A stretch of 64,000 nt of DNA from Candidatus Saccharimonadota bacterium (GTDB lineage Bacteria > Patescibacteriota > Saccharimonadia > Saccharimonadales > JAGQNJ01), in assembly GCA_020428405.1 (NCBI GenBank), contig JAGQMZ010000002.1, forward strand, positions 33 through 64,032. The letters run 5' to 3'. Below the pieces are notes generated by a model. It was not told where the DNA came from and did not search any database. It saw only the letters and a list, made by a program, of their open reading frames with translations. This document shows, in pieces, positions 2,791-25,260 of the stretch. The stretch's first letter is position 1, and each line of letters opens with the position of its first letter. The position numbers and the translations under genes are program-made.

Positions 2791-3749
2791 TAAATTATGG
2801 GTAAAAAGAAGTTCCTAGATCTTATTAAGCTCGCGGCGCAGCCTTTGCCAAAAGGAGCGAAAACACGTTTTGATGACGATGATTATAACGAAAGGCAAAC
2901 TCTGAAACGTACGAATGAAGCCAGTAAGGCGAAACAGAATGGTAAGTCCCATTCACAGAACGCTTCAACTGACCGAAAAAGCCCTCGACGTGGTTCGTCG
3001 TAACACCATTCTTTACGAACTCTTTTGCAATATGCCTGACTGACTCATGTTCAAATACAACTCGTACACGTAAATGCTTATAGATCTTGCTTTCATCAGT
3101 GTGAAGCATAGAACCAGGTCTTACATTTGATTCCAAGAACGGTACGGCTGTGTCTGAGTTGGCTTTCGGTACCACGGCTGTTCTAACATGTCCACCAACT
3201 TCCAGAGCTGCTAAAACTGGTGTTTTGTTGTCACCTTTCTTACTTTGTTTACTCTTACCGCCAATATATGCCTCATCTACTTCAATTGGGGTGCCTAAAA
3301 AACCAAGTTTGCCACTTTCATTCATGAGTATGCGTATCATCTTGGCCATACGGTGGGCTGTTTTATAACTGACGCGTACTTGTCGTTCTATTTCCTTAGC
3401 GCTGACCCCATTCTTGGATACAGAGAACAGGTACAATGCATGGAACCAGTCTGTGAGTGGTGTAGTAGATTTTTCAAAAATAGTGCCAGCTAGCGGATAT
3501 ATCTGATGTCTACATTCCTTACAGACAAAAGACATGCGTTGTTTAACTCTGTAATACTTTGGACTAACGATACCGCAGTGCGGACAGGCCTTCATGCCAC
3601 CGTAGCGTGCATCAAAAAGATATTGCAGGCATGCATCATCATCCGTAAATTGTGCTTGCATATCTTTTAGCGTATATCTCATAGTGTTGCTCTACTTGTC
3701 TACAAGTACATTATAACACTTAAGAACGTGTACATATTGTTGTAAAATA
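2791..3749 (-). mobile_element. IS1595-family insertion sequence (ends approximate)
   Basis: An 8-bp direct repeat GTTACTAT at 2783-2790 and 3750-3757 flanks the transposase gene, and IS1595 elements typically make 8-bp duplications. I could not identify convincing terminal inverted repeats. Confidence 0.4.
2825..3682 (-). CDS. IS1595-family (ISXO2-like) DDE transposase
   Basis: N-terminal zinc ribbon CPHCG...CKECRH, then VEVDEAYIGG...HTDE...TNHVEGFFGQLKR...YVSEFAFRYNHR, the characteristic IS1595 transposase layout. Confidence 0.9.
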   Translation of the reverse strand: MRYTLKDMQAQFTDDDACLQYLFDARYGGMKACPHCGIVSPKYYRVKQRMSFVCKECRHQIYPLAGTIFEKSTTPLTDWFHALYLFSVSKNGVSAKEIERQVRVSYKTAHRMAKMIRILMNESGKLGFLGTPIEVDEAYIGGKSKQSKKGDNKTPVLAALEVGGHVRTAVVPKANSDTAVPFLESNVRPGSMLHTDESKIYKHLRVRVVFEHESVRHIAKEFVKNGVTTNHVEGFFGQLKRSVNGTYHSVSPYWLHSYVSEFAFRYNHRHQNVFSLLLAKAAPRA

Positions 3750-3825
3750 GTTACTATGTGTATAAGTGAATAATGAGCAAAATCAGCCCATCTGTTTACT
3801 TGTTCTGACTACACACTCCTCGGAT

Positions 3826-3860
3826 AAATAAAAAGCTGCTCCTATTTCAGAGCAGCTTTT
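3826..3860 (-). terminator. Intrinsic terminator after rplL
   Basis: Perfect 10-bp stem AAAAGCTGCT / AGCAGCTTTT with a 10-nt loop, followed on the minus strand by a T-rich run, 24 nt after the rplL stop. Confidence 0.7.
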
Positions 3861-3883
3861 AGTTATTGGGCAACGTAGACTAT

Positions 3884-4270
3884 TTAAGCAAGCTCTACAG
3901 TTGCACCAGCCTCTTCTAGAGACTTCTTAGCAGCTTCTGCATCTTCTTTGCTAGCTTTTTCTACAACTGGCTTTGGTGCGCCATCAACGATAGCTTTTGC
4001 TTCACCCAGTCCAAGACCAGTAATTTCTTTAACAGCTTTAATAACTGCTACTTTTTGTGCACCAGCATCTTTAAGGACAACATCAAATTCGCTCTTTTCT
4101 TCTGCTGCACCAGCGTCGTCACCACCAGCGGCTGGGCCAGCGACCGCTACTGCAGCTGCTGCCGCAGGCTCAATGCCGTACTCGTCTTTTAGGATAGTTT
4201 TTAGTTCGTTTACCTCTAGAACAGTTAAGCTTGTTAGCTCTTCTGCTAGTTTTTTAAGATCTTTTGCCAT
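3884..4270 (-). CDS. rplL: 50S ribosomal protein L7/L12 (bL12)
   Basis: Ala/Glu-rich hinge followed by [41 protein letters not shown]. Confidence 0.97.
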
Positions 4271-4921: not shown

Positions 4922-5143
4922 AGTTTTATGAATCCTTTACCTTAAATTTATATCGACCTGAGTGTTAATGTTCTTCTACCAAAAAAGCCTTTGGTTGGCC
5001 AAAGACTTCTTAATATACGATTTTGCTTTTATCTTTTATAAATAACGGCTTCTCGTACCTCGGTAGCATTCTTAAGTGGTTACACCGCTACTGTCTTTGG
5101 TAAAATGTACCTGAATTATATCAATTCTTTAGGGTAATATCAA
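4922..5143 (-). promoter_or_regulatory. rplJ promoter and L10-leader-like structured 5' UTR with attenuator hairpin
   Basis: TTGATA (5138-5143), N17, TATAAT (5115-5120) on the minus strand. The ~190-nt leader contains GUCUUUGG-ccaa-CCAAAGGC plus UUUUUU (4981-5007). This hairpin's G-U pair works only in minus sense. SD is AAGGTAAAGGA. Confidence 0.5.
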
Positions 5144-5610: not shown

Positions 5611-5746
5611 TAAAAACCCCGCTGTTGCGGGGTTTGGGTTACTTTAACAATAACATTAATCCCGCGGTGGCGAGTTCTTAATAATTGCAATAATTATTGA
5701 TTGTGTCATCGGTAAAGTTTATACTCCTTACACAATTATCTGTCAA
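5611..5746 (-). promoter_or_regulatory. Candidate leader-peptide transcription attenuator (Ile type)
   Basis: TTGACA (5741-5746), N17, TATAAA (5718-5723). The ATG lies 8 nt after the -10. The 17-codon ORF is followed by the terminator AACCCCGC-aaca-GCGGGGTT plus TTTTT (5611-5634). GCGGG in the last codons can pair with the terminator 5' arm CCCGC. Confidence 0.45.
5656..5709 (-). CDS. 17-codon Ile-rich leader peptide candidate (MTQSIIIAIIKNSPPRD)
   Basis: 5 of 17 codons are Ile (ATA/ATT). Leaderless spacing from the -10 box. The stop lies about 20 nt before the terminator stem. Confidence 0.4.
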   Translation of the reverse strand: MTQSIIIAIIKNSPPRD

Positions 5747-5961
5747 GCTGGCAAATGGGCTCGATTAGGTGGAGTTACATGCGTAATGACTTCTGGAATG
5801 TCTACTTCCCCAGCTGCACTTAGTACAACCCCACCTACGACTTTAGCTGAATCAACTTCGTATGATTCCTGTTCTTTGTTGGCAGAGCCTATCATTGTCT
5901 GTACATCTTTTTTGCACACCTCAGCCCATCTTGAATCCATAGGGTCTTTAATTTCTTCCAT
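5743..5961 (-). CDS. Hypothetical acidic protein (72 aa)
   Basis: ORF with SD GAGAGGAAA upstream and a structured leader at 5962-6110. No family recognised. Confidence 0.4.
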   Translation of the reverse strand: MEEIKDPMDSRWAEVCKKDVQTMIGSANKEQESYEVDSAKVVGGVVLSAAGEVDIPEVITHVTPPNRAHLPA

Positions 5962-6126
5962 TTTTTTCCTCTCAAAGTTAAATAACTCTAAACTTACTTA
6001 AGGCTGTTTAGCTTTGACTTACGGTTTAGTTTGCACAAGCAAAGCACAGCCTGTTCAGGCTAAGGAGTGTTAGTGGTTGCCGTGCTTTATTTATCATTAC
6101 ATATAAATTATCAAATAATATTCTAC

Positions 6127-6310
6127 TTGACAACAAGCTTTAACAGCAGTAATTTAATATATGTGAGCTATTTCAACACAGTTATTGCCAAGATTTGCAT
6201 GAGCCACCGATATGGCTTTGTGCTCGTCATGCAATAAGGTGTTGGATTTGGTTCAGTAAAGCGACAATTTAGAAAAATGAAGCCGAATCCAAACAAGGGT
6301 TCGGCTTTTT
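6127..6310 (+). promoter_or_regulatory. Promoter plus structured leader ending in an intrinsic terminator, upstream of a hypothetical gene
   Basis: TTGACA (6127-6132), N17, TAATTT (6150-6155). The ~150-nt leader ends with GCCGAAUCC-aaacaa-GGGUUCGGC (6282-6305) plus TTTTT. Confidence 0.4.
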
Positions 6311-6329
6311 AATGAAAGGTATACAGATA

Positions 6330-6755
6330 ATGACATTACTAGAGACGGATTTAACACCCGAAATAATGAAGCTTGATACTGACGCATTGATTGGCTATGA
6401 AATGACTACTTCTAGGGAAAGGCTTAGAGATTTTTTCAATAACCCAAAAAGGAATACAATTGACTCAGATGTAGGCTATGCGGTTGTTATGTCTGATTAT
6501 TTGAACACTATTCAGAAGTACTGGTATGAACAAGATGCAGCTACGAAATATGAAGTAATAGAAGAATTGCCAAGGAGAATTAAAGCAGAGGCTCAAATGT
6601 TTTTTGAGAGTGTTGAGCCAATTGATGAAATTGCTAATAGAGTTAACACTTATCTAAATGATCAGACTGCTAATAGTCTTAAACAAAGAGGGATTTCTCA
6701 GTATCCTAGAGCAACAACCATGACTTTACTTGATATATTTGACGATTATCGTTAG
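6330..6755 (+). CDS. Hypothetical acidic protein (141 aa; track start 6312 is less likely)
   Basis: The second ATG (6330) has AAAGG 9-14 nt upstream. The first ATG abuts the terminator U-tract. Confidence 0.5.
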   Translation: MTLLETDLTPEIMKLDTDALIGYEMTTSRERLRDFFNNPKRNTIDSDVGYAVVMSDYLNTIQKYWYEQDAATKYEVIEELPRRIKAEAQMFFESVEPIDEIANRVNTYLNDQTANSLKQRGISQYPRATTMTLLDIFDDYR

Positions 6756-6765
6756 TTCAATTATT

Positions 6766-9060
6766 TTATATACTATTAAGTTTGAACTGAGTATATCGTT
6801 CGGCTGCTAAACGAGTTAATTCTGGATCTTCATCTTTGTTTACAAATATCATTGCATCAGCAATAACTGGGTGGACTTCTGCAAGCTTATCGTGCATCTG
6901 TTTAACTAGTTTTCTGTAACCAGGATGGCCTTGTGGAGTTGTTCTTAGTTCGTGCAAGTGAAAAGCTTCTCTTGCGTTATATGTAACTTTCCAGCGCATT
7001 TTATGGCCAAGTAAGGTTGCATACTGGGCTTCTAAATCATAACCAGCTTTTTGTAAGTCACTATACAACGACAGACTAATTTCAAAACATTGCTCAAATT
7101 CATCTGTTAGATTAGCTTGCTCAACTAAATCAGGGACATCAAAGCCTAGCCTTGGCGAAAGATACTGCCATTCAAGGTCATCGACAATTCGATGACGTTG
7201 TAAATCTCTAAAAATACCGTAGTCACAAACAAGATCCCAAGAATAATGCGCTTTTTCTAATGCTCTGCCAGGACGGTGCCTTCTGTTTAGTCTTTCTCCC
7301 ATATAGCTGTTAAATATTTCTAAGCGTTTTTGATAGGGCATTTCATTAACTTGTTGCTGAATTTCTTCAAGCGGTGCATTTGAATGCTCGTATACCATAT
7401 CTGCAACTAGGTCTAGCTCATTTCGTGGCCAGTAGCTGGAGAGTGTAACTTCAGATGTTTTGTCCGAAATGCCGTATGATTGAGAGACAAGTTCGTTAGC
7501 TAATTTACTTACTGCTTTATAAGTATTTGCCCTATATGCAATAGTGGCACCGCCACGCTCAGGCTTATCTGCTCTTTCAAGAAATGTCGGAATAACTTTT
7601 CTTAACTCATCAAGCAACTGTTTACCTACTTTTTGGGCTTCTGGCAATTTGTCTGACATAAGGTGCATTATTAAACTTTCTAGAGCCTGACCTGAAGCGT
7701 AAATACCTACAGTTGATGTGGTTGCAACGGGCAAAAGTGGTCTTGCGGCGTCGCAAGCTTGTGCCCGGGTTGCGCTCTTCCAAGCTGTGTCTTGCTGATT
7801 TTTTGATACGCTAGAATTTGATCTCACGTATGCGGTCAGTTTGTGTACAATATCCGAGTATATATCAAAAATTTTATCGATTTTGGCTATGTATTTATCT
7901 TTGGTTTCAGTGTCTAAATATTTAGGTATATGGTACCTATATTTACCTTGACTATCTTTTTGGTCAAAATATATGTACCGAGTTGACTGCTCTAGGTATG
8001 ATGCCAATCTACCCCACTCAAGCTTTTTTGTAAGCAGATTAGAAGCGTTTTCTACTACAACATGTTGGCCAACTAGCTGTTGTACAGAATCATCGCCATA
8101 TGCTGTAATGACACGTTTTAGTAAGTTCTCATCTTTGCCGGCTTTTTCTATAAATTCGTCCAAAATCGTTATCCGCATATCATCACCGCGTCGGCTAAGC
8201 CTTGCCATTGCTGCGGCTATTGTTACCGGGCTTAGTTCTTCGTTAAAGGCATAAACACTGCTGTTGGTGTTAGTGACTACATTGGAAAGATATTGTTTGC
8301 CGGCATCGGTTATTTTATAGCCGTCATCATCTTTTATTAGTAATTCTTCGTTTAATGTATTTACTGGTTTAAGCATTGGCTGAACTTTCTCCCATATCAT
8401 TTTATGTACTGTATCAATATCAAGTAATTGACCATCTCTTACGCAATCTATTCGTTCAAAATCCTTAGGGAATAACTCGCACAAATCATCGTATACTTCT
8501 ACAGCTGTTTGTAAATGTTTTAAGTCAGCTTCATGGATATCTCGTTTTTTATCCGTATAAGTTCGCTCTTCTTTTTGGTCTACCAGCTTTTGAGCTATCT
8601 CGGCCGGAACTCTAAGCACAAAGTTTTTATCTGGCCTGGGTATTCCAAGCATTTCAAATTCTAAGTTATCAAGCCAAATAAAATAGCCACGTCTTTCCTC
8701 TGGATGACTAAATTTTGTTCCTTGGTGGCCCATGTTAGAGCCTGTAAATCTGTTGCACAGTACAATTTTACCGGCCTTCAGTGCTTTTTTTATGTCAGAA
8801 GATGCCTGGTATCTATCTAGGGCATAAAATAGCGAACCAGTATATGGACCTACCTGCTCGGCTGTGCCGTATTTGCCATTCAAGTATTCCTTGACAAAAA
8901 AGCTTGAATTTTCTTCGTATTGAGGAAAGTCAAAAGTTGCAACATCATGGCCTTCGCGCTCCAACCGTTGTTTTAGTAATTTAAATTGTGTACCTTTACC
9001 TGAACCGTCGGTACCTTCGATTACTATAAAAAGACCTTCCCCACCCGTTTTGCTGGGCAT
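6766..9060 (-). CDS. tmk-thyX: Fusion protein: thymidylate kinase (N-terminal) plus tandem-type FAD-dependent thymidylate synthase ThyX (C-terminal)
   Basis: The N-terminus has the FIVIEGTDGSGKGTQ P-loop and an ALDRY motif. The C-terminal ~530 aa carries ASYLEQSTRY and LQRHR...AREAFHLHELRTTPQGHPGYR, which are ThyX signatures in a duplicated arrangement. An alternative GTG start at 9075 would overlap dcd. Confidence 0.8.
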   Translation of the reverse strand: MPSKTGGEGLFIVIEGTDGSGKGTQFKLLKQRLEREGHDVATFDFPQYEENSSFFVKEYLNGKYGTAEQVGPYTGSLFYALDRYQASSDIKKALKAGKIVLCNRFTGSNMGHQGTKFSHPEERRGYFIWLDNLEFEMLGIPRPDKNFVLRVPAEIAQKLVDQKEERTYTDKKRDIHEADLKHLQTAVEVYDDLCELFPKDFERIDCVRDGQLLDIDTVHKMIWEKVQPMLKPVNTLNEELLIKDDDGYKITDAGKQYLSNVVTNTNSSVYAFNEELSPVTIAAAMARLSRRGDDMRITILDEFIEKAGKDENLLKRVITAYGDDSVQQLVGQHVVVENASNLLTKKLEWGRLASYLEQSTRYIYFDQKDSQGKYRYHIPKYLDTETKDKYIAKIDKIFDIYSDIVHKLTAYVRSNSSVSKNQQDTAWKSATRAQACDAARPLLPVATTSTVGIYASGQALESLIMHLMSDKLPEAQKVGKQLLDELRKVIPTFLERADKPERGGATIAYRANTYKAVSKLANELVSQSYGISDKTSEVTLSSYWPRNELDLVADMVYEHSNAPLEEIQQQVNEMPYQKRLEIFNSYMGERLNRRHRPGRALEKAHYSWDLVCDYGIFRDLQRHRIVDDLEWQYLSPRLGFDVPDLVEQANLTDEFEQCFEISLSLYSDLQKAGYDLEAQYATLLGHKMRWKVTYNAREAFHLHELRTTPQGHPGYRKLVKQMHDKLAEVHPVIADAMIFVNKDEDPELTRLAAERYTQFKLNSI

Positions 9061-9067
9061 GGAAGTA

Positions 9068-9781
9068 TCAGTCACCTTTTAAACCTGCAATTCCTTTCGG
9101 TAAAATTCTTTTATCCTTATATGCTTTTGGCAGCATCTGGTCAGGAGTCCAATTTTTAATTAATGTATCAAGATCTGTTCCTGACTGATATTTGCCGCTA
9201 AACCCGCTATTTCTTCCTTGGCCGTAGTTACCTTCAACCTGGCCTGTTTCTAAAAATATTGCTTGTGCGATCCGTTCACCAACTGGCAAAAGCACGATTT
9301 CTTTGTGATTTAAGTTATAAATTTCTAGTGTTAGCCGGTTTATATATCCGGGGTCAACCCAGCCGGCATCAAAACACACTGCTACACCATTTCGTCCCCA
9401 ACTTGAACGAGCCTTTATTTCATATGCTCCAGGTGGTTTTATGCCAAAAAATTCGTGTGTATGAGCTAAAATTCGTTCGCCAGGCTTTAATGGTATGATG
9501 GGGTGTTTTGGCGGTATGTTCTTAAGAAGCTTAACACCGTTAATATCGCACCATTCCTTATGGGGTAATGCGGTTTGTGGTTTACCAAAGTATCTTTGAA
9601 CGTCAGACTCATCAAATGGATTATAGATTGTATTATCACCGGCTCGTTCAGTTCTATAATAGTTTGCTCCTAAAGTTACATCTAGACTAGCATGAGATAT
9701 ATGCTTGGGACTAAACGGCCGACAGACTATGTGCCCGTCATCTAAAGCCTTTTTAATTTGAATATTACTATATACTCCCAT
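9068..9781 (-). CDS. dcd: dCTP deaminase / dUTPase-superfamily protein
   Basis: IQIKKALDDGHIV..PF, then KARSSWGRNGV...DAGWVDPGY.NRLTLEIYN, typical of Dcd. The ATG at 9781 is preferred over the track's TTG at 9802. Confidence 0.8.
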   Translation of the reverse strand: MGVYSNIQIKKALDDGHIVCRPFSPKHISHASLDVTLGANYYRTERAGDNTIYNPFDESDVQRYFGKPQTALPHKEWCDINGVKLLKNIPPKHPIIPLKPGERILAHTHEFFGIKPPGAYEIKARSSWGRNGVAVCFDAGWVDPGYINRLTLEIYNLNHKEIVLLPVGERIAQAIFLETGQVEGNYGQGRNSGFSGKYQSGTDLDTLIKNWTPDQMLPKAYKDKRILPKGIAGLKGD

Positions 9782-16543: not shown

Positions 16544-16620
16544 AGGGGTGTAGCTCAGTTGGCTAGAGCGTCGGTCTCCAAAACCGAAGGCCTCGGGTTC
16601 GAGTCCCGCCACCCCTGCCA
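16544..16620 (+). tRNA. trnW: tRNA-Trp (anticodon CCA), CCA end encoded
   Basis: Acceptor AGGGGTG/CACCCCT, anticodon loop CU-CCA-AA, T-loop GGTTCGAGTCC, discriminator G, 3' CCA. Confidence 0.9.
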
Positions 16621-19983: not shown

Positions 19984-20846
19984 TCTTTTATTTTCTCATG
20001 AAATTCTTTTGGCAGGTTTGATTTATAATTTTTCTTCTCACCGTTTGGAAGTTTAATTTCTAGTGAAACTGCATGCAAAAATAGCCGCTTATCTGGTTTG
20101 CCACCATAAAATTCGTCTCCAAGTATTGGATAGCCTAGGTACTTTAAATGAATTCGTAGTTGGTGGGTCCTACCTGTGCGTGGTTTTAGTTCAACTAGGC
20201 AATAATCCGAGCCTTCATCTATTACTTTGTATTCCGTTTGAGCTGATTTTCCACTTGATGTAGCCTCAAATAATTTGGGGTTTGAAGTACTTCTGCCTAT
20301 CGGAATATCAATGACGGCTTGTTTTGGGCTAATGCCTGATTTTGCAACGGCAATATATTTTTTTGAAACTTTTCGTTCAGAAAACTGTTTTTGTAGAAGT
20401 TTAAGAGTCTTTTCATTTTTAGCGCAAATAATAACACCAGAAGTAGCTCTATCAAGCCGATGTACAATTCCACCTCGGTTTCCAGATAGTCCATCAAGTT
20501 TGTTTGCAATAAAGGTTGCTACAGTCGGCTCATCATTAATTTCACCCTTGCTATGAGTTAAGACTCCTTCAGGCTTATCTATGACAATACAATCATTATC
20601 TTCATATAGGATAGGAAGAGTAATAAATTTTGGATGTACTAACTGATCCATATTTATGTCAATAATTACTTGATCGCCTTCTCGAACTTTATAACCGGAT
20701 TTTACTGACATAATGCCATTGACATGAATTTTTTTACCATCAATAAGTTTTTTTATATAGCTCCTGCTCATCTTCTCATGTTTTTTCAGCAGATAGTTAT
20801 CAAGTCTTATTCCTGAATCAATTTTTTTTATTTGATGTTTGGTCAT
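19980..20846 (-). CDS. rluD: RluA-family 23S rRNA pseudouridine synthase (RluD-like) with S4 domain
   Basis: S4-like RLDNYLLKK, catalytic HRLDRATSGVIICAKN, and GRTHQLRIHL. Confidence 0.85.
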   Translation of the reverse strand: MTKHQIKKIDSGIRLDNYLLKKHEKMSRSYIKKLIDGKKIHVNGIMSVKSGYKVREGDQVIIDINMDQLVHPKFITLPILYEDNDCIVIDKPEGVLTHSKGEINDEPTVATFIANKLDGLSGNRGGIVHRLDRATSGVIICAKNEKTLKLLQKQFSERKVSKKYIAVAKSGISPKQAVIDIPIGRSTSNPKLFEATSSGKSAQTEYKVIDEGSDYCLVELKPRTGRTHQLRIHLKYLGYPILGDEFYGGKPDKRLFLHAVSLEIKLPNGEKKNYKSNLPKEFHEKIKE

Positions 20847-21018
20847 CTCTTAATCTCTTCCATTCTGCTTTTTCCTCAGGATCTATAGGAGGTAAAAGAT
20901 AATCCTCTAAAGGTATAGGAACTGCTCGCATCATCCCCCTAATACTAACAGTTTCTGAAATATTACTACTACCACCATCAACTCCATCCTCAATATGGTA
21001 AACTTTAATTTCTTCCAT
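20818..21018 (-). CDS. Hypothetical small acidic protein (66 aa) between trpS and rluD
   Basis: AAAGGAA SD about 9 nt upstream, inside the trpS 3' end. Overlaps the rluD start by 29 nt. Confidence 0.4.
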   Translation of the reverse strand: MEEIKVYHIEDGVDGGSSNISETVSIRGMMRAVPIPLEDYLLPPIDPEEKAEWKRLRDDQTSNKKN

Positions 21019-21024
21019 GTATTT

Positions 21025-22053
21025 TTATTCCTTTCGTAAGCCGACTGCATTTTGGACATTTAATAATGTATGGTTGGCTGTATGGTTCATGGTTTTTTCT
21101 GAATATTCAAGTTTGCTCAGTAATGCAGACTCATCTACTGAATTTAGTTTTGATTGAAAATTACTTAAAAATTTACTTACTACTTCTGCAACGTCTTTTT
21201 TAAGTTGTCCGTATTGCGACTGCCCTTTGTATTTACTAATAACAGATTCAATGCTTTCACCTGAAAGCGCAGCAAATATATCTAGCAAGTTACTAATACC
21301 AGGCTGTTTTTCATAATCGTAGTTTACAGAGCCAATACTATCAGTTGTTGAGCCCACAATTTTTTTAGAAGCAATTTCTGGACTGTCTCCTAAAAATATG
21401 ACACCCTTACCTGTTTCATCAGATTTACTCATTTTCTTTTCTGGGTTAACTAAATCACGAATTCTCAGACGTTGTTGTTTGTTGGCAAACTCTATTTGAG
21501 CGTTTTCTGGCTCTGGTGGTGTAAATAATTCACCGAACTTATTATTCACCCTTATGGCAATATCTCTTGCTAGCTCAACATGCTGGGTTTGATCAGCACC
21601 TACCGGCACGTATTTGGCCCCGTAGAGTAATATATCGGCAGCCATCAACACTGGATAATCAAATAGTCCTGCGCTTATGCCTTGTTTGCCTTGACCCTTT
21701 TCTTTGAATTGAGTCATTCTGCTTAGTTCACCCATGTAGGTAAAGCAATTTAGGATTACTGTAAGTTCGCTATGGGCAGGAATATAACTCTGACGATAAA
21801 TGTATGAATCCTTATCGTCCAAGTTAAGGCCTGTTGCAACAAATATTTTAAGGTTATGCATGGTTTGATCATATAGCTTGCTGTGGTCTATAGGTGTAGT
21901 AAAGCTGTGAAGATCTGGCACAAATAAGTTTACTTGATATTCGCCCGCATAAGCCTTTTGAAGCTCGACAATAGGAAGCAAAGCACCTAAATAGTTGCCC
22001 AGGTGTAAATCATTATTTGCTCTTAGACCGGTTAGTATAACTGGCTTACTCAT
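21025..22053 (-). CDS. trpS: Tryptophan--tRNA ligase
   Basis: ILTGLRANNDLHLGNYLGA (HIGH-type) and KMSKS present. About 340 aa, class Ic architecture. Confidence 0.93.
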   Translation of the reverse strand: MSKPVILTGLRANNDLHLGNYLGALLPIVELQKAYAGEYQVNLFVPDLHSFTTPIDHSKLYDQTMHNLKIFVATGLNLDDKDSYIYRQSYIPAHSELTVILNCFTYMGELSRMTQFKEKGQGKQGISAGLFDYPVLMAADILLYGAKYVPVGADQTQHVELARDIAIRVNNKFGELFTPPEPENAQIEFANKQQRLRIRDLVNPEKKMSKSDETGKGVIFLGDSPEIASKKIVGSTTDSIGSVNYDYEKQPGISNLLDIFAALSGESIESVISKYKGQSQYGQLKKDVAEVVSKFLSNFQSKLNSVDESALLSKLEYSEKTMNHTANHTLLNVQNAVGLRKE

Positions 22054-22080
22054 TGTTTTGTATATTATACCTTATTTTCA

Positions 22081-22140
22081 TTAACTTAATTTCATTGTTT
22101 GATATAGCTCTGCTGTTTTTTGGCTTACTAAAGTTTCCAT
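22081..22140 (-). CDS. Possible 19-aa mini-ORF (METLVSQKTAELYQTMKLS) between attenuator and trpS
   Basis: Good SD GGAAGGA 4-5 nt before the ATG, directly after the terminator U-tract. No conservation evidence available. Confidence 0.2.
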   Translation of the reverse strand: METLVSQKTAELYQTMKLS

Positions 22141-22154
22141 AATTTCCTTCCGTT

Positions 22155-22320
22155 AAAAAAGACCGCCGATGTGGCGGTCTTTTGGTTTACTTATATAAAT
22201 TTATTTAACAATATGAAATAGAACGCCACTGGTGTGGTTTTGTAAACCAAAAGTAATATTGATTTATAGCTCTACTTAACATAACAAAACTAAAATATAC
22301 CATGCCCTAGTAATTGTCAA
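22155..22320 (-). promoter_or_regulatory. Candidate ribosome-mediated attenuator (Trp type) upstream of trpS
   Basis: TTGACA (22315-22320, overlapping the M20 TGA stop) with TATATT/TATTTT as -10. Contains the 25-codon ORF. The box AGUGGCGUUCUA (22219-22230) is complementary to the terminator 5' arm CGCCAC. Terminator is GACCGCC-acat-GGCGGTC (22161-22179) plus TTTTTT. Confidence 0.5.
22205..22282 (-). CDS. 25-codon Trp/Tyr-rich leader or arrest peptide candidate (MLSRAINQYYFWFTKPHQWRSISYC)
   Basis: Leaderless spacing from the -10. Same length as the ORF at 24526-24603, with shared M1, R/K4, I/V6, Y9, W12, P16, W19-R20-S21 and Y24. Confidence 0.5.
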   Translation of the reverse strand: MLSRAINQYYFWFTKPHQWRSISYC

Positions 22321-23393
22321 CTATTAACTCTACTGAATTTGGTTACAAATTTTTTAAGGAGTTTATAAAATTTTTCTATACTTTCTTTTGAAATCCACTC
22401 TTCATCTCCATGGGCCCCGCCACCATCTGGACGAAGCATTATAACGGGTATATTTTTTTCTGCAAAAAATCTTGCATCCGATGAACCGTGCGCTCGTGTA
22501 AAATTAATAATACCATTGTTTTCTTTTTTATAAATTTTTATGAATTGTTGCACGTATGGATTTAATTTATCAAGCACATAATCCTGGCCATTTTTTTCAT
22601 TTTTTATAGATACATCATACTTTAGAAATAGTGAGTTAAGATGTTTGTATATTCTTGTTAGGTCATCCTGTGATTTATAGCGAATGTCTAGTGTACAATC
22701 AGCAGTTGCTGGGCCTTTGTTTTCAGAATCCCCAGAGTTTATTTTCGCAATTGTGACTGTCGAGTTAACTGTATTTGACATGTCAAACAGTTCTTCAACT
22801 TCAGATAAAAATTTAACCATTTTTGAAGCCGCACCATCACCCTCCCATGGACGTGAACCATGGTGGGCTTTACCTTGAACAGTTAACTCTAAAATAAGGA
22901 TGCCTTTGGCTCCTATATTTAGACTACCAAAACCCTCTCCGGCGTCTGGGAGTATACATAAGTCTGCAGAGTACCCTTTATCAAGCAAGCTTTTTACTCC
23001 ATTAAAGCCACCAAGTTCTTCATCTCCTGTAAGCATAATACCCAAATTATAATTCTTAAGATTAGGTTTCAGCTCATTTATAAGCTTAATGAAGCATGCC
23101 GTGGCAAAAAGCATGTCATATACTCCTCTTCCAAAGTACTTATTGTCAGTTTGTCTAAATCCTTGACCCTCTCCGGGGACAACATCAATGTGAGCCTGAA
23201 GCAAGAGTTTGGTTTTTTTGGTTCCTTTGGTGCCTGCATATAAACTATAAACCCCGTCATTTTTAAAAATTGAGGTGAATAGTCCAGCATTTTTCAAACT
23301 TTTTTCTACGTATTTACATAGCTGTTTAACGTTTTCTTGTTTTTCAGACTGAGGGTAAAATTCTACTAGTTCTTTGAGTGTTTTTTCTAACAT
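22317..23393 (-). CDS. M20-family metallopeptidase (ArgE/DapE/CPG2-like)
   Basis: LQAHIDVVP, GRGVYDM, GDEELGG and GKAHHGSRPWEGDGA are M20 metal-binding and catalytic motifs. Confidence 0.85.
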   Translation of the reverse strand: MLEKTLKELVEFYPQSEKQENVKQLCKYVEKSLKNAGLFTSIFKNDGVYSLYAGTKGTKKTKLLLQAHIDVVPGEGQGFRQTDNKYFGRGVYDMLFATACFIKLINELKPNLKNYNLGIMLTGDEELGGFNGVKSLLDKGYSADLCILPDAGEGFGSLNIGAKGILILELTVQGKAHHGSRPWEGDGAASKMVKFLSEVEELFDMSNTVNSTVTIAKINSGDSENKGPATADCTLDIRYKSQDDLTRIYKHLNSLFLKYDVSIKNEKNGQDYVLDKLNPYVQQFIKIYKKENNGIINFTRAHGSSDARFFAEKNIPVIMLRPDGGGAHGDEEWISKESIEKFYKLLKKFVTKFSRVNS

Positions 23394-23400
23394 GAGTTAA

Positions 23401-24447
23401 CTATACCAGAACGGCTCCGCTTACAGCATTACTTGCACCGTGCAGTAAAACTTCATTTCTTGCCACGTAACATCCTCCAACTGCTTCTGCACTTACTACT
23501 CCACTCTCACTACTTAGTAAAGTAAACACTCTTAGGATTGCATTAGTGCGATCCTCACTATTGACAATCTGAAAAGGAGGGAGGAACTCTTGAACAAGTG
23601 CTCCCTTATTTTGTTCGCAGTACTTACTAAGGTCACGTTTTAATCTGCTTGCAGTTACTGTCCTGGCCTTACCGTACCTCTCTCGGTCGCTTCTTGATAA
23701 ATATATACTAATACCCATTGCCATAGACCCAAGGCGTGACTTTACTACTTGTGATGAAAGATCTCCATTGAGATCAACAAGTAAATCATCTTCACTTTTT
23801 ACAGCCGTAAGTATACCTACTTTCTCAGCATACGTTTTGTCTCCTTCGGTAACAAGTGGTGCTACAGCTTGTTGCTGAAACTGTAAGTAGGGATCTCTTG
23901 ATGTTTTACTTCCAGGTATAGCTTTAACAATAACTGGTCCGTTAATTCTGAGATCTTCTGGAACATTGCCAATATTGATATATTTCGAGTCACCAACTAT
24001 TAAGCCATCATCAGTGCCGTGACCACGTTCATTAGAAATAATAACAGTGGGAGGAGAGTTCAGTAGCTCTTCATAGTGACCAAGTATCACATCTTTTATT
24101 CCTGCTCTTCCAATGCTTTTATGGATTATGTCGGTAATGCCCTGTCCTGAAGGACTATCTTCCATCTCATAGGGCAGCATTACTCCATTTTTTCCAATTG
24201 TGCAGTCTACCCTGGCAACCAGTGTGGGTATACCAAACATATTATATGCTTGTGTGTCTTCTGTTGTGTAATTTTCTGCAGCGCCAGACGCAAAGTCTTC
24301 AATTTGTTGCTTGTGTTCTTCGCTAAGTACAATTACATCGTTTGAAAATGGTGTTGACAGACCATCGTATAAATAAAGCTCACCATTTTGTGAGGCAAAG
24401 CTTATCGGGCCAGTTTCATTTAATCGTTGACTACTTATTTCTCTCAT
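23401..24447 (-). CDS. Hypothetical protein, possibly ATP-grasp-like ligase
   Basis: PVIVKAIPGSK..., ALVQEFLPP and a C-terminal GGCYVARNEVLLHGASNAVSG loosely resemble ATP-grasp strand motifs. Weak assignment. Ends 7 nt upstream of the M20 gene. Confidence 0.5.
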   Translation of the reverse strand: MREISSQRLNETGPISFASQNGELYLYDGLSTPFSNDVIVLSEEHKQQIEDFASGAAENYTTEDTQAYNMFGIPTLVARVDCTIGKNGVMLPYEMEDSPSGQGITDIIHKSIGRAGIKDVILGHYEELLNSPPTVIISNERGHGTDDGLIVGDSKYINIGNVPEDLRINGPVIVKAIPGSKTSRDPYLQFQQQAVAPLVTEGDKTYAEKVGILTAVKSEDDLLVDLNGDLSSQVVKSRLGSMAMGISIYLSRSDRERYGKARTVTASRLKRDLSKYCEQNKGALVQEFLPPFQIVNSEDRTNAILRVFTLLSSESGVVSAEAVGGCYVARNEVLLHGASNAVSGAVLV

Positions 24448-24470
24448 ATCTCTTTCTCGTTTCTTTAGGT

Positions 24471-24642
24471 AAAATTATAAAAACCGCCTAGTGGCGGTTA
24501 TGTATATTTATATCTTATAGAAAAACTAGGAATACAAAGTAGAACGCCACTTTCGCGGGTTATTATGCCAATGCCGATAATATGTGACTGTTTTATTTAC
24601 CATATCTGCACCAATATACACTTTAGATACTCTAGTTGTCAA
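24471..24642 (-). promoter_or_regulatory. Paralogous attenuator unit upstream of the ATP-grasp-like/M20 pair
   Basis: TTGACA (24637-24642), N18, TATATT (24613-24618), 25-codon ORF, identical box TAGAACGCCACT (24540-24551, plus strand). The box is exactly 57 nt from ACCGCC of the terminator, as in the trpS unit. Terminator is AACCGCC-acta-GGCGGTT (24482-24499) plus TTTTTAT. Confidence 0.5.
24526..24603 (-). CDS. 25-codon Trp/Tyr-rich leader or arrest peptide candidate (MVNKTVTYYRHWHNNPRKWRSTLYS)
   Basis: The ATG lies 9 nt after the -10. Paralog of 22205-22282, with mostly conservative replacements (L/V, R/K, I/V, F/H) and a synonymous Pro codon. Confidence 0.5.
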   Translation of the reverse strand: MVNKTVTYYRHWHNNPRKWRSTLYS

Positions 24643-24824
24643 CCTAATATCAAATTACCATCTTTATAAGTAGCTTTTTCAGCCTCTTCAATTTTACTAA
24701 GTTCACCCTGAAAGTAAACTTCTTCTAGTTCTGAAGGTTCGGGATCTGCAATAGTGGCGTCAACCTCAACACCCTGCAAAGTCATATCATAGATAGGGCC
24801 TTCAGTACTGTTTAATTGCTCCAT
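24639..24824 (-). CDS. Hypothetical small acidic protein (61 aa from the internal ATG)
   Basis: The track ORF 24639-24938 overlaps the rpsI 3' end, so the internal Met at 24824 is used. No SD and no family, so this is a weak call. Confidence 0.3.
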   Translation of the reverse strand: MEQLNSTEGPIYDMTLQGVEVDATIADPEPSELEEVYFQGELSKIEEAEKATYKDGNLILG

Positions 24825-24861
24825 AATATTAATAATATCATGGAAACTAATTGCAAAGATT

Positions 24862-25260
24862 TTAACGCTTTGTAAACTGTCGTTGCTTACGAGCACCCTT
24901 AAGGCCGAACTTCTTGCGTTCTTTCTCACGAGGGTCACGGCTAAGTAGATCAGCTCGTTTAAGAGTACTCTTGAGATCTGGATTCATAGCTGCTAGAGCT
25001 CTTGTAATGCCTAATCTAATAGCATCAACTTGGCTAGCATGACCACCACCGCTGACTTTTGCGCTAACATCGAATTTATTCACTTGGTCTAAAATTACAA
25101 AGGGTTGGTTTAATTCGTAAATAAATGTTTTACTTTCAGCAAAGTATTCTCCTACAGACTTATCATTAATTGTAATTTTGCCAGAACCAGACATTAATCT
25201 TACTCTTGCAGTTGAGCTTTTTCGTCTGCCTAGTGCGTAAAAATACTTATCTTTGGCCAT
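24862..25260 (-). CDS. rpsI: 30S ribosomal protein S9 (uS9)
   Basis: GRRKSSTARVRL...GGGHASQVDAIRLGITRAL...RDPREKERKK.GLKGARK.RQFTKR. Confidence 0.96.
   Translation of the reverse strand: MAKDKYFYALGRRKSSTARVRLMSGSGKITINDKSVGEYFAESKTFIYELNQPFVILDQVNKFDVSAKVSGGGHASQVDAIRLGITRALAAMNPDLKSTLKRADLLSRDPREKERKKFGLKGARKQRQFTKR

Follow-up and report, generated by a model that had tools for sequence, protein, structure and literature searches.

In the Escherichia coli trp leader (trpL; RF00513, Trp_leader), a short leader open reading frame (ORF) bearing Trp codons is combined with mutually exclusive RNA helices 1:2, 2:3 and 3:4 and an intrinsic terminator, and a ribosome that terminates at the end of this ORF sits over region 2 and blocks it. 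Here we describe two paralogous leader units with these same features in a 64-kb stretch of a Candidatus Saccharimonadota genome (contig JAGQMZ010000002.1; hereafter the window, meaning the whole stretch of DNA that was analysed), one lying upstream of trpS and the other upstream of a gene pair encoding an ATP-grasp-like protein and an M20 metallohydrolase. We judge it likely that each unit is a classical ribosome-mediated transcription attenuator, sensing charged tRNA-Trp by stalling at the UGG of codon 12. Unlike E. coli trpL, these leaders usually carry one Trp codon, or two that are not adjacent, in place of a tandem pair; they are apparently leaderless, occur in Saccharibacteria, and control trpS together with variable tryptophan-supply genes, not a trp biosynthetic operon.

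Three further systems invite comparison. In Streptomyces, trpS and leuS have been predicted to be preceded by classical attenuators (Seliverstov et al. 2005, PMC1262725), and these likewise place leader-peptide attenuation on a tryptophanyl-tRNA synthetase gene; they are, however, unrelated to the present leaders in sequence and phylum, and only the latter are embedded in a conserved locus with exchangeable cargo. Mycobacterial leaderless polycysteine short ORFs are reported to be Cys-responsive attenuators (bioRxiv 10.1101/834739) and resemble our leaders in having a short ORF at or near the transcript 5′ end whose translation senses one amino acid; the leaders described here have one Trp codon in place of Cys runs, and a conserved, explicit terminator/antiterminator pair. 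Finally, the T-box riboswitch, the usual regulator of trpS in Firmicutes, acts on the same gene with a terminator/antiterminator output that responds to tRNA-Trp charging, whereas the present leaders lack Stem I, a specifier loop and the T-box bulge, and instead maintain a conserved frame that appears to be translated.

Literature searches on leader peptides and transcription attenuation in Saccharibacteria and the candidate phyla radiation turned up no described case, and nothing relevant on the Saccharibacteria tryptophanyl-tRNA synthetase. Rfam 15 was scanned at gathering threshold on the whole window and eight related loci, and in E-value mode on the region and a canonical relative (L018). 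No family in these scans covered the leader, and only sub-threshold, terminator-driven matches appeared (STnc420 and the Phe, Trp and Thr leaders), with RF00513 reaching 22.3 bits in the window against a gathering score of 41, carried by the terminator, and going unreported for L018. Gene regulation is almost uncharted in Saccharibacteria and other bacteria of the candidate phyla radiation, and the leader is a real and well-supported regulatory element, representing an ordinary mechanism in an unusual phylum.

Two leader units share one architecture

The genes of the locus all lie on the minus strand, in the order rpsI, unit 2, a 348-aa ORF, the M20 gene, unit 1, a 19-codon ORF and trpS. Unit 2 (24642-24477) and unit 1 (22320-22153) are built from the same parts, as the original prediction had stated: a sigma-70-type promoter, an ATG, an ORF of exactly 25 codons, an identical 12-nt box (AGTGGCGTTCTA) and an intrinsic terminator. 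The unit 2 promoter (24613-24642, minus) consists of the -35 hexamer TTGACA (24642-24637), an 18-nt spacer and the -10 hexamer TATATT (24618-24613), matching 11 of 12 consensus positions and scoring highest in the region in a promoter consensus scan. Its unit 1 counterpart (22292-22320, minus; TTGACA at 22320-22315, 17-nt spacer, TATTTT at 22297-22292) is the other of the two best matches. As predicted, the stop codon of the M20 gene overlaps the latter promoter, with its TGA (22319-22317) falling inside the -35 hexamer. The leader ATG follows the -10 box by 9 nt in both units, and judging from this promoter spacing the transcripts are probably leaderless or nearly so.

The leader ORFs (unit 2, MVNKTVTYYRHWHNNPRKWRSTLYS, 24526-24603; unit 1, MLSRAINQYYFWFTKPHQWRSISYC, 22205-22282; both minus, 25 codons plus stop) share M1, R/K4, I/V6, Y9, W12, P16, W19-R20-S21 and Y24, in agreement with the earlier comparison. 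The proposed sensing codon of unit 2 is the UGG of W12 (24568-24570, minus), and unit 1 carries Trp codons at W12 (22249-22247) and W19 (22228-22226). The box, which we call region 2, occupies 24540-24551 in unit 2, where it provides the 5′ strand of the antiterminator and holds the in-frame W19 codon, and 22219-22230 in unit 1 (both minus). Read on the plus strand, it starts exactly 57 nt after ACCGCC in each unit (24483 to 24540 and 22162 to 22219), as had been noted. The exact 12-mer occurs at only two sites in the 64-kb window, against a chance expectation of about 0.01 copies per 128 kb, and global alignment of the two units yields 111 identical positions and a score of 73, compared with -24 ± 10 for shuffled sequences. 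A covariance model of the leader family described below detected exactly two copies in the window, at 92.6 and 80.7 bits, and found no third copy there or in the flanks of 23 loci.

A leader family defined by an RNA element

The family set comprises 59 related leaders from Saccharibacteria genomes and metagenomes, with ORF and frame statistics drawn from 57 instances. The covariance model was trained on 15 leaders, and a metagenome scan with the pattern TTGGTTTACC-N(6-16)-TGGCGGTTT retrieved 80 loci, 38 of which carry true leaders according to that model. The leader ORFs are ATG-initiated and span 20-33 codons, and a -10-like hexamer is present in 44 of the 57 leaders, with the ATG then lying 4-12 nt downstream, mostly 6-10. 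The frame holding the UGG is open in every instance (57/57), compared with 23 and 32 for the other two frames. UUGG is invariant (alignment A3) and shares the reading frame of the ATG in every leader, its Trp codon falling at codon 10-14 in nearly all of them and at codon 19 in one, and 49 of the 57 leader peptides contain exactly one Trp. The box starts 19-23 nt past the UGG, reading GUGGCGGUUUGUUC in its canonical form and GUGGCGUUCUA in the window clade, and an intrinsic terminator with a GC-rich stem and a U run closes both window units and all homologues.

The original prediction had proposed that the peptide acts by itself, on the grounds that its conservation at the amino-acid level exceeds what a leader needs. 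The family points the other way. The N-terminal nine codons show no conservation, and the box is read in three frames among the 57 leaders, as xAVCSV in 24, GGLFRV in 26 and WR.. in 7, the last group including both window units and L023, a close relative; its nucleotides and its spacing from the UGG stay constant across all three frames, and it covaries with the 5′ arm of the terminator. Because different lineages read the box in three frames, its constraint acts on RNA: as the sequences indicate, the box is an RNA element, and the shared W19-R20-S21 is its translation and not a peptide motif. The 25-codon pattern W12/P16/WRS/Y24 recurs only in L023 (MTYKVTSQYHVWFTNPHKWRSTSYC), the closest relative found.

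Nevertheless, several features could suit a sensor built into the nascent peptide, either an arrest peptide responding to free tryptophan in the manner of TnaC or a free small peptide. TnaC is 24 residues long and carries W12-F13. A [YF]-W-F-T motif is widespread among the leaders, in most of them Trp stands about 13-15 residues ahead of the stop codon, the Thr codon following WF varies (ACC, ACT, ACA, ACG), and W12/P16/WRS/Y24 is kept in three window-clade leaders. Under such a model a ribosome with Trp bound would stall near the stop codon and keep the box covered. However, the three frames turn the C-terminal half of the leader into unrelated peptides, the position matching TnaC D16 is D, G, N, T, S, F or K, the leaders have no conserved C-terminal Pro, and unit 2 itself replaces YWFTD with HWHNN. 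Box pairing, compensatory changes included, accounts for the conserved nucleotides past the UGG, and termination here is intrinsic and not Rho-dependent. Taken together, these points leave a peptide sensor quite unlikely.

Mutually exclusive pairings around the box

The box is complementary to the bases just 5′ of the terminator, the terminator's 5′ arm and its first loop bases, forming an antiterminator. Across the 59 aligned leaders this 14-pair helix is 86.6% paired, compared with 35-54% when the partner columns are slid, and seven of its pairs vary on both sides. The outermost pair, 63-133, occurs as GC in 26 leaders, CG in 11 and UA in 3; because its 3′ base lies within the terminator loop, this covariation is not explicable by the terminator stem, which itself covaries across the family. 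Duplex energies between the box and its partner (region 3) average -17.0 kcal/mol compared with -8.8 for shuffled boxes, with z < -2 in 48 of 57 leaders. Automatic detection of terminator arms misplaced region 3 in about nine sequences, unit 2 included, and their low duplex energies are artefacts; the unit 2 pairing was redone by hand.

In unit 2, region 3 (CGCCACT, 24490-24496, minus) consists of terminator 5′ arm and loop bases and complements AGTGGCG of the box, and the intrinsic terminator (24477-24499, minus) reads AACCGCC-ACTA-GGCGGTT followed by TTTTTAT. In unit 1, region 3 (AGACCGCCAC, 22171-22180, minus) complements GTGGCGTTCT of the box with one U.C mismatch, ahead of a terminator (22153-22183, minus) of the form AAAGACCGCC ACATC GGCGGTCTTT followed by TTT. 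The unit 1 duplex reaches -14.6 kcal/mol, compared with -5.7 for a shuffled box. With a ribosome mask at W12 and the terminator 3′ arm withheld, both window units fold into the antiterminator (-13.1 kcal/mol in unit 2); with the mask at the stop codon, the terminator alone folds.

A third helix would oppose the antiterminator. The bases directly after the UGG (canonically ACCGACAC) pair with the box in a helix that begins 3-6 nt past the UGG; across the family this region 1:box helix is 70.8% paired with 3 covarying pairs, and its compensatory changes include C-to-U with G-to-A in L003 and L017, while a ribosome footprint over its 5′ strand is an assumption. In unit 2, minimum-free-energy folding and the family helix counts place region 1 at AACCCGC (24555-24561, minus), forming an anti-antiterminator hairpin with the box, and a ribosome stalled at W12 would, given the assumed footprint, cover it; in unit 1, GUGG of the box also pairs with an upstream CCAC (22237-22234, region 1). 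As predicted from sequence, the pairings thus follow the 1:2 / 2:3 / 3:4 logic of classical attenuation.

A proposed attenuation mechanism and its weak points

The elements themselves, their conservation, their complementarity and covariation and the genes they precede are observed, and they form the basis for reading the units as attenuators. In the proposed mechanism, transcription would start a few bases 5′ of the ATG, and a ribosome loading at the 5′ end would trail the polymerase. When Trp-tRNA is scarce, that ribosome would wait with UGG codon 12 in its A site, covering about 12 nt beyond it, which is region 1, and leaving free the box that starts 19-23 nt past the UGG. The free box would pair with region 3, blocking the terminator hairpin, and the polymerase would continue past it, reaching trpS in unit 1 and the ATP-grasp/M20 genes in unit 2. 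When Trp-tRNA is plentiful, the ribosome would instead reach the stop codon, about 20 nt past the box start, and occlude the box; the terminator would form and transcription would end. That the element responds to Trp is supported because trpS and the first enzyme of aromatic biosynthesis are among its associated genes.

Several points weigh against this account. Most leaders rely on one Trp codon, which makes for a weaker sensor than the tandem pair in E. coli trpL. Leaders of the window type have a second in-frame Trp codon inside the box, and a ribosome stalled at that codon, W19, would act in the wrong direction by blocking the antiterminator. In the window units the helix of region 1 with the box is short, at 4-7 bp and about -6 to -7 kcal/mol. 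One family member, L144 (3653-3776, plus), the trpS leader of the genome that also contains L003, has lost the canonical UGG, lacks the canonical UAUUGGUUU segment and encodes a 24-codon ORF (MTSMLITGTPNYRAWRAGLFCDFA) whose only Trp codon lies 7 nt before the box, misfitting the geometry. Stalling at that codon would leave the antiterminator strand under the ribosome; this leader may be a decayed attenuator or may follow a different logic. Because 38 of the 59 leaders came via the pattern fixing TTGGTTTACC and TGGCGGTTT, those columns are invariant by construction in that subset; the protein-anchored leader set, which is independent of the DNA pattern, has the same features. Finally, where transcription starts, that the leader ORF is translated, how a stalled ribosome is placed, and that read-through depends on Trp in the stated direction are all predictions from sequence, and leaderless initiation is read from promoter spacing.

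An untranslated RNA switch offers another account of the same conservation, whether as a miniature T-box-like sensor of tRNA-Trp, as a riboswitch of some other type or as a site bound by a regulatory protein. In the T-box-like variant the first UGG would be the specifier, and UGGC of the box would pair with the GCCA end of tRNA-Trp. The leaders do have two conserved elements containing UGG, strong nucleotide conservation and a terminator/antiterminator architecture, and trpS is a classic T-box target in Firmicutes (discussed in PMC1262725). However, no match to the T-box family (RF00230) was obtained even at E ≤ 10 in the window region or L018, nor does another Rfam family match the leader; Stem I and a specifier loop are absent, the two UGGs are merely about 20 nt apart, and the box UGGC is wholly paired within the antiterminator and not bulged. 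An ATG-initiated frame that runs intact through the UGG in all 57 leaders, and a -10-to-ATG distance that is short and fairly constant where a -10 was found, would both be needless for an untranslated RNA. We rejected the T-box reading on the missing model match, the missing Stem I and the conserved ORF, and an untranslated switch of any of these kinds seems very unlikely.

The weakest alternative, that the mini-ORF is the precursor of a ribosomally synthesized and post-translationally modified peptide (RiPP), modified and trimmed by the adjacent ATP-grasp ligase and M20 enzyme with the terminator only setting the precursor:enzyme ratio, fits the typical RiPP layout of a small ORF directly 5′ of an ATP-grasp enzyme and a peptidase, and a gammaproteobacterial locus (L020) likewise has a small ORF and terminator upstream of two ATP-grasp genes and an M20 gene, but we regard it as extremely improbable, given that the same leader precedes trpS, DAHP (3-deoxy-D-arabinoheptulosonate 7-phosphate) synthases and other genes where the ATP-grasp gene is absent (most metagenomic loci), that there is no conserved core peptide and the box is read in three frames, that the window peptides lack the acidic residues required for graspetide cross-links, and that the enzyme has a glutathionylspermidine-synthetase-like fold, which is not the RimK/microviridin type of ATP-grasp ligase.

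The attenuation reading carries some wider meaning. A family of 59 instances with covariation suggests ribosome-coupled attenuation on probably leaderless transcripts in Saccharibacteria, and it labels several genes whose role is unknown, chiefly a rare ATP-grasp-like family, as inducible by a shortage of Trp-tRNA. Its added value is that an uncharacterised enzyme pair is flagged as Trp-regulated.

A conserved locus with exchangeable cargo

Fourteen species-representative genomes yielded the ATP-grasp/M20 pair: 13 metagenome-assembled genomes (MAGs) of Candidatus Saccharibacteria or Saccharimonadales and one gammaproteobacterial genome (L020). Several assemblies yielded it as well. At most of these loci a single leader lies 5′ of the ATP-grasp gene, and the M20 gene is followed directly by trpS and then rluD. 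Throughout the metagenomic loci the order rpsI > leader > cargo > trpS > rluD is conserved, with trpS downstream in nearly all loci of sufficient extent. The cargo may be absent or consist of small ORFs of 53-107 aa; other loci carry the ATP-grasp/M20 pair, a class I or class II DAHP synthase, a chorismate mutase/prephenate dehydratase, an Asp/Glu racemase or an AstE/AspA-type deacylase. This exchangeable cargo amounts to a natural experiment: some lineages carry biosynthetic enzymes and others a ligase, deacylase or racemase gene, which points to lineage-specific tryptophan supply.

The arrangement in most relatives, one operon behind a single leader, bears out the proposal that trpS and the pair are co-regulated, most plausibly by Trp supply. 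Because the window holds two paralogous copies of the leader, an ancestral-type operon of leader, ATP-grasp, M20 and trpS appears to have been split here into two separately attenuated units, which would constitute a small Trp-starvation regulon.

Individual loci add variations on this plan. In L146 an AstE/AspA-family gene lies between leader and trpS (3291-4001, plus). L073 has an M20 gene (6222-7298, minus) between rpsI and the trpS leader, with neither an ATP-grasp partner nor a leader of its own. L075 carries tandem leaders (2227-2360 and 2648-2771, plus) with a 79-aa ORF between them, and the second (MNTKLQNLYWYYHLYWRSFS), which has two Trp codons and W-R-S like the window units, is followed by a gene for an Asp/Glu racemase.

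Origin of the two window units

That the two units are duplicates, as originally proposed, stands insofar as they are paralogues of one element; the trpS unit, however, is more than a recent copy confined to this genome. Besides the window, another genome has one leader before the ATP-grasp/M20 pair (L003) and a separate one before trpS (L144). The closest relatives found (L001, L021 and L023; 60-63% identity) have no second leader before trpS. Both window units share derived characters, the GGCGUUCUA box and the in-frame second Trp, that were otherwise found only in L023, and these argue for a copy event or gene conversion within the window clade.

What speaks against a simple recent duplication is the stretch that follows the unit 1 terminator, which appears related to sequence at the L144 locus. 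This stretch contains the 19-codon ORF (METLVSQKTAELYQTMKLS, 22081-22140, minus), which has GGAAGGA in front of it and lies between the unit 1 terminator and trpS. The beginning of this ORF and the bases just before it resemble the start of a 66-aa ORF that follows the L144 trpS leader (TTAACGGA...ATGGAAACTTTA; 4 of 1000 shuffles reach as high a local alignment score). The 19-codon ORF is probably the truncated remnant of a small-protein family that lies between leader and trpS in many loci. As an alternative to copying or conversion, unit 1 may be a resident trpS leader, with the leader-ATP-grasp-M20 module inserted 5′ of it. We also considered, and rejected, an origin of the stretch from the unit 1 terminator to trpS by duplication of the 5′ end of the ATP-grasp gene: its local alignment score is 20, compared with 17.8 ± 2.8 for shuffles, and in a repeat test 200 of 1000 shuffles scored as high.

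The genes behind the leaders

The downstream gene of unit 1 is trpS (21025-22053, minus), encoding tryptophan--tRNA ligase (TIGR00233, 282.1 bits against a cutoff of 176.75). Unit 2 precedes the 348-aa ORF (23401-24447, minus), which is separated by 7 nt (23400-23394) from the M20 gene, in line with the original prediction. The 348-aa protein belongs to no Pfam or NCBIfam family: it has no sequence match in Pfam, NCBIfam or, with the family profile, the PDB, and Pfam domains are also absent from ten of its distant relatives. Its ATP-grasp-like character, first proposed from weak motifs, is borne out by structure. An AlphaFold2 (AF2) model built from 31 homologues reached a predicted local distance difference test score (pLDDT) of 93.9, and its best PDB matches are glutathionylspermidine-synthetase-like proteins (3n6x, 2io7 and YgiC 7uk8; Foldseek probability 1.00, template-modelling score 0.45-0.54, sequence identity 10-12%), followed by glutathione synthetases, PurK and Ddl, so that every top match is an ATP-grasp enzyme. 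On this modelled structure the protein has a glutathionylspermidine-synthetase-like ATP-grasp fold, an assignment at the level of fold, not substrate, and it differs from the three best-matching enzymes in being about 100-240 residues shorter. The family is small: a word-indexed search groups it into 73 clusters, and a search of 1.84 billion proteins gives 308 cluster representatives at E ≤ 0.001.

The second gene (22317-23393, minus) encodes an M20 metallohydrolase, as had been called, of the ArgE/DapE deacylase type (PF01546, 87.8 bits; PF07687, 49.1 bits). It falls under the cutoff of every specific equivalog (DapE, ArgE, LysK) and is thus assigned to the group and not to a substrate. LysX and LysK of the amino-group-carrier pathways pair an ATP-grasp enzyme with an ArgE-like M20 enzyme. 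The window pair is similar in gene arrangement, placing an ATP-grasp ligase gene beside an M20 gene of the ArgE/DapE/LysK type, but neither a carrier protein nor the intermediate enzymes lie near it. The L020 locus (about 5700-9514, plus), from the gammaproteobacterial MAG, encodes a protein distantly homologous to the 348-aa protein (27% identity). A 14-codon ORF (MKSTFLVCCVTTLL) with a terminator lies ahead of this gene, and an ATP-grasp_3 protein and an M20 peptidase are encoded after it. Because the linkage of ligase and M20 is present in L020, it appears to be older than Saccharibacteria.

The regulatory context suggests that the ATP-grasp/M20 pair has a role in Trp supply. We offer only as a tentative possibility that the leader marks a Trp-starvation regulon in Saccharibacteria within which the pair is a previously unknown tryptophan-acquisition or salvage module. 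If so, the pair would fill, in reduced host-dependent lineages, the slot used elsewhere by DAHP synthase, the racemase and the AstE/AspA deacylase, and the element would be a direct handle on how epibionts get an amino acid they cannot make.

Neighbouring features

Just 5′ of trpS, at 22060-22080 (minus), the sequence GGTATAATATACAAAACA-ATG holds a perfect TATAAT, which may act as an internal promoter for basal trpS expression past the attenuator; it was not listed by the promoter consensus scan, as an adequate -35 hexamer is absent. Upstream of unit 2, between it and rpsI (25260-24862, minus), lies a putative ORF of 99 aa (24639-24938, minus), starting from GTG and with an internal ATG near 24822 (MEQLNSTEGPIYDM...). 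Its TGA falls inside the unit 2 -35 TTGACA, paralleling the M20 stop codon inside the -35 hexamer of unit 1.

A tRNA-Trp (CCA) gene lies at 16544-16620 (plus), about 5.6 kb from the Trp-regulated operons. The window also contains a further cis-regulatory RNA at 4972-5118 (minus), the leader of ribosomal protein L10 (RF00557; 67.1 bits, over the gathering score). Downstream of trpS, a 66-aa ORF (MEEIKVYHIEDGVDGG..., 20818-21018, minus) separates it from an rluD-like gene, whereas trpS and rluD are adjacent in most related loci.

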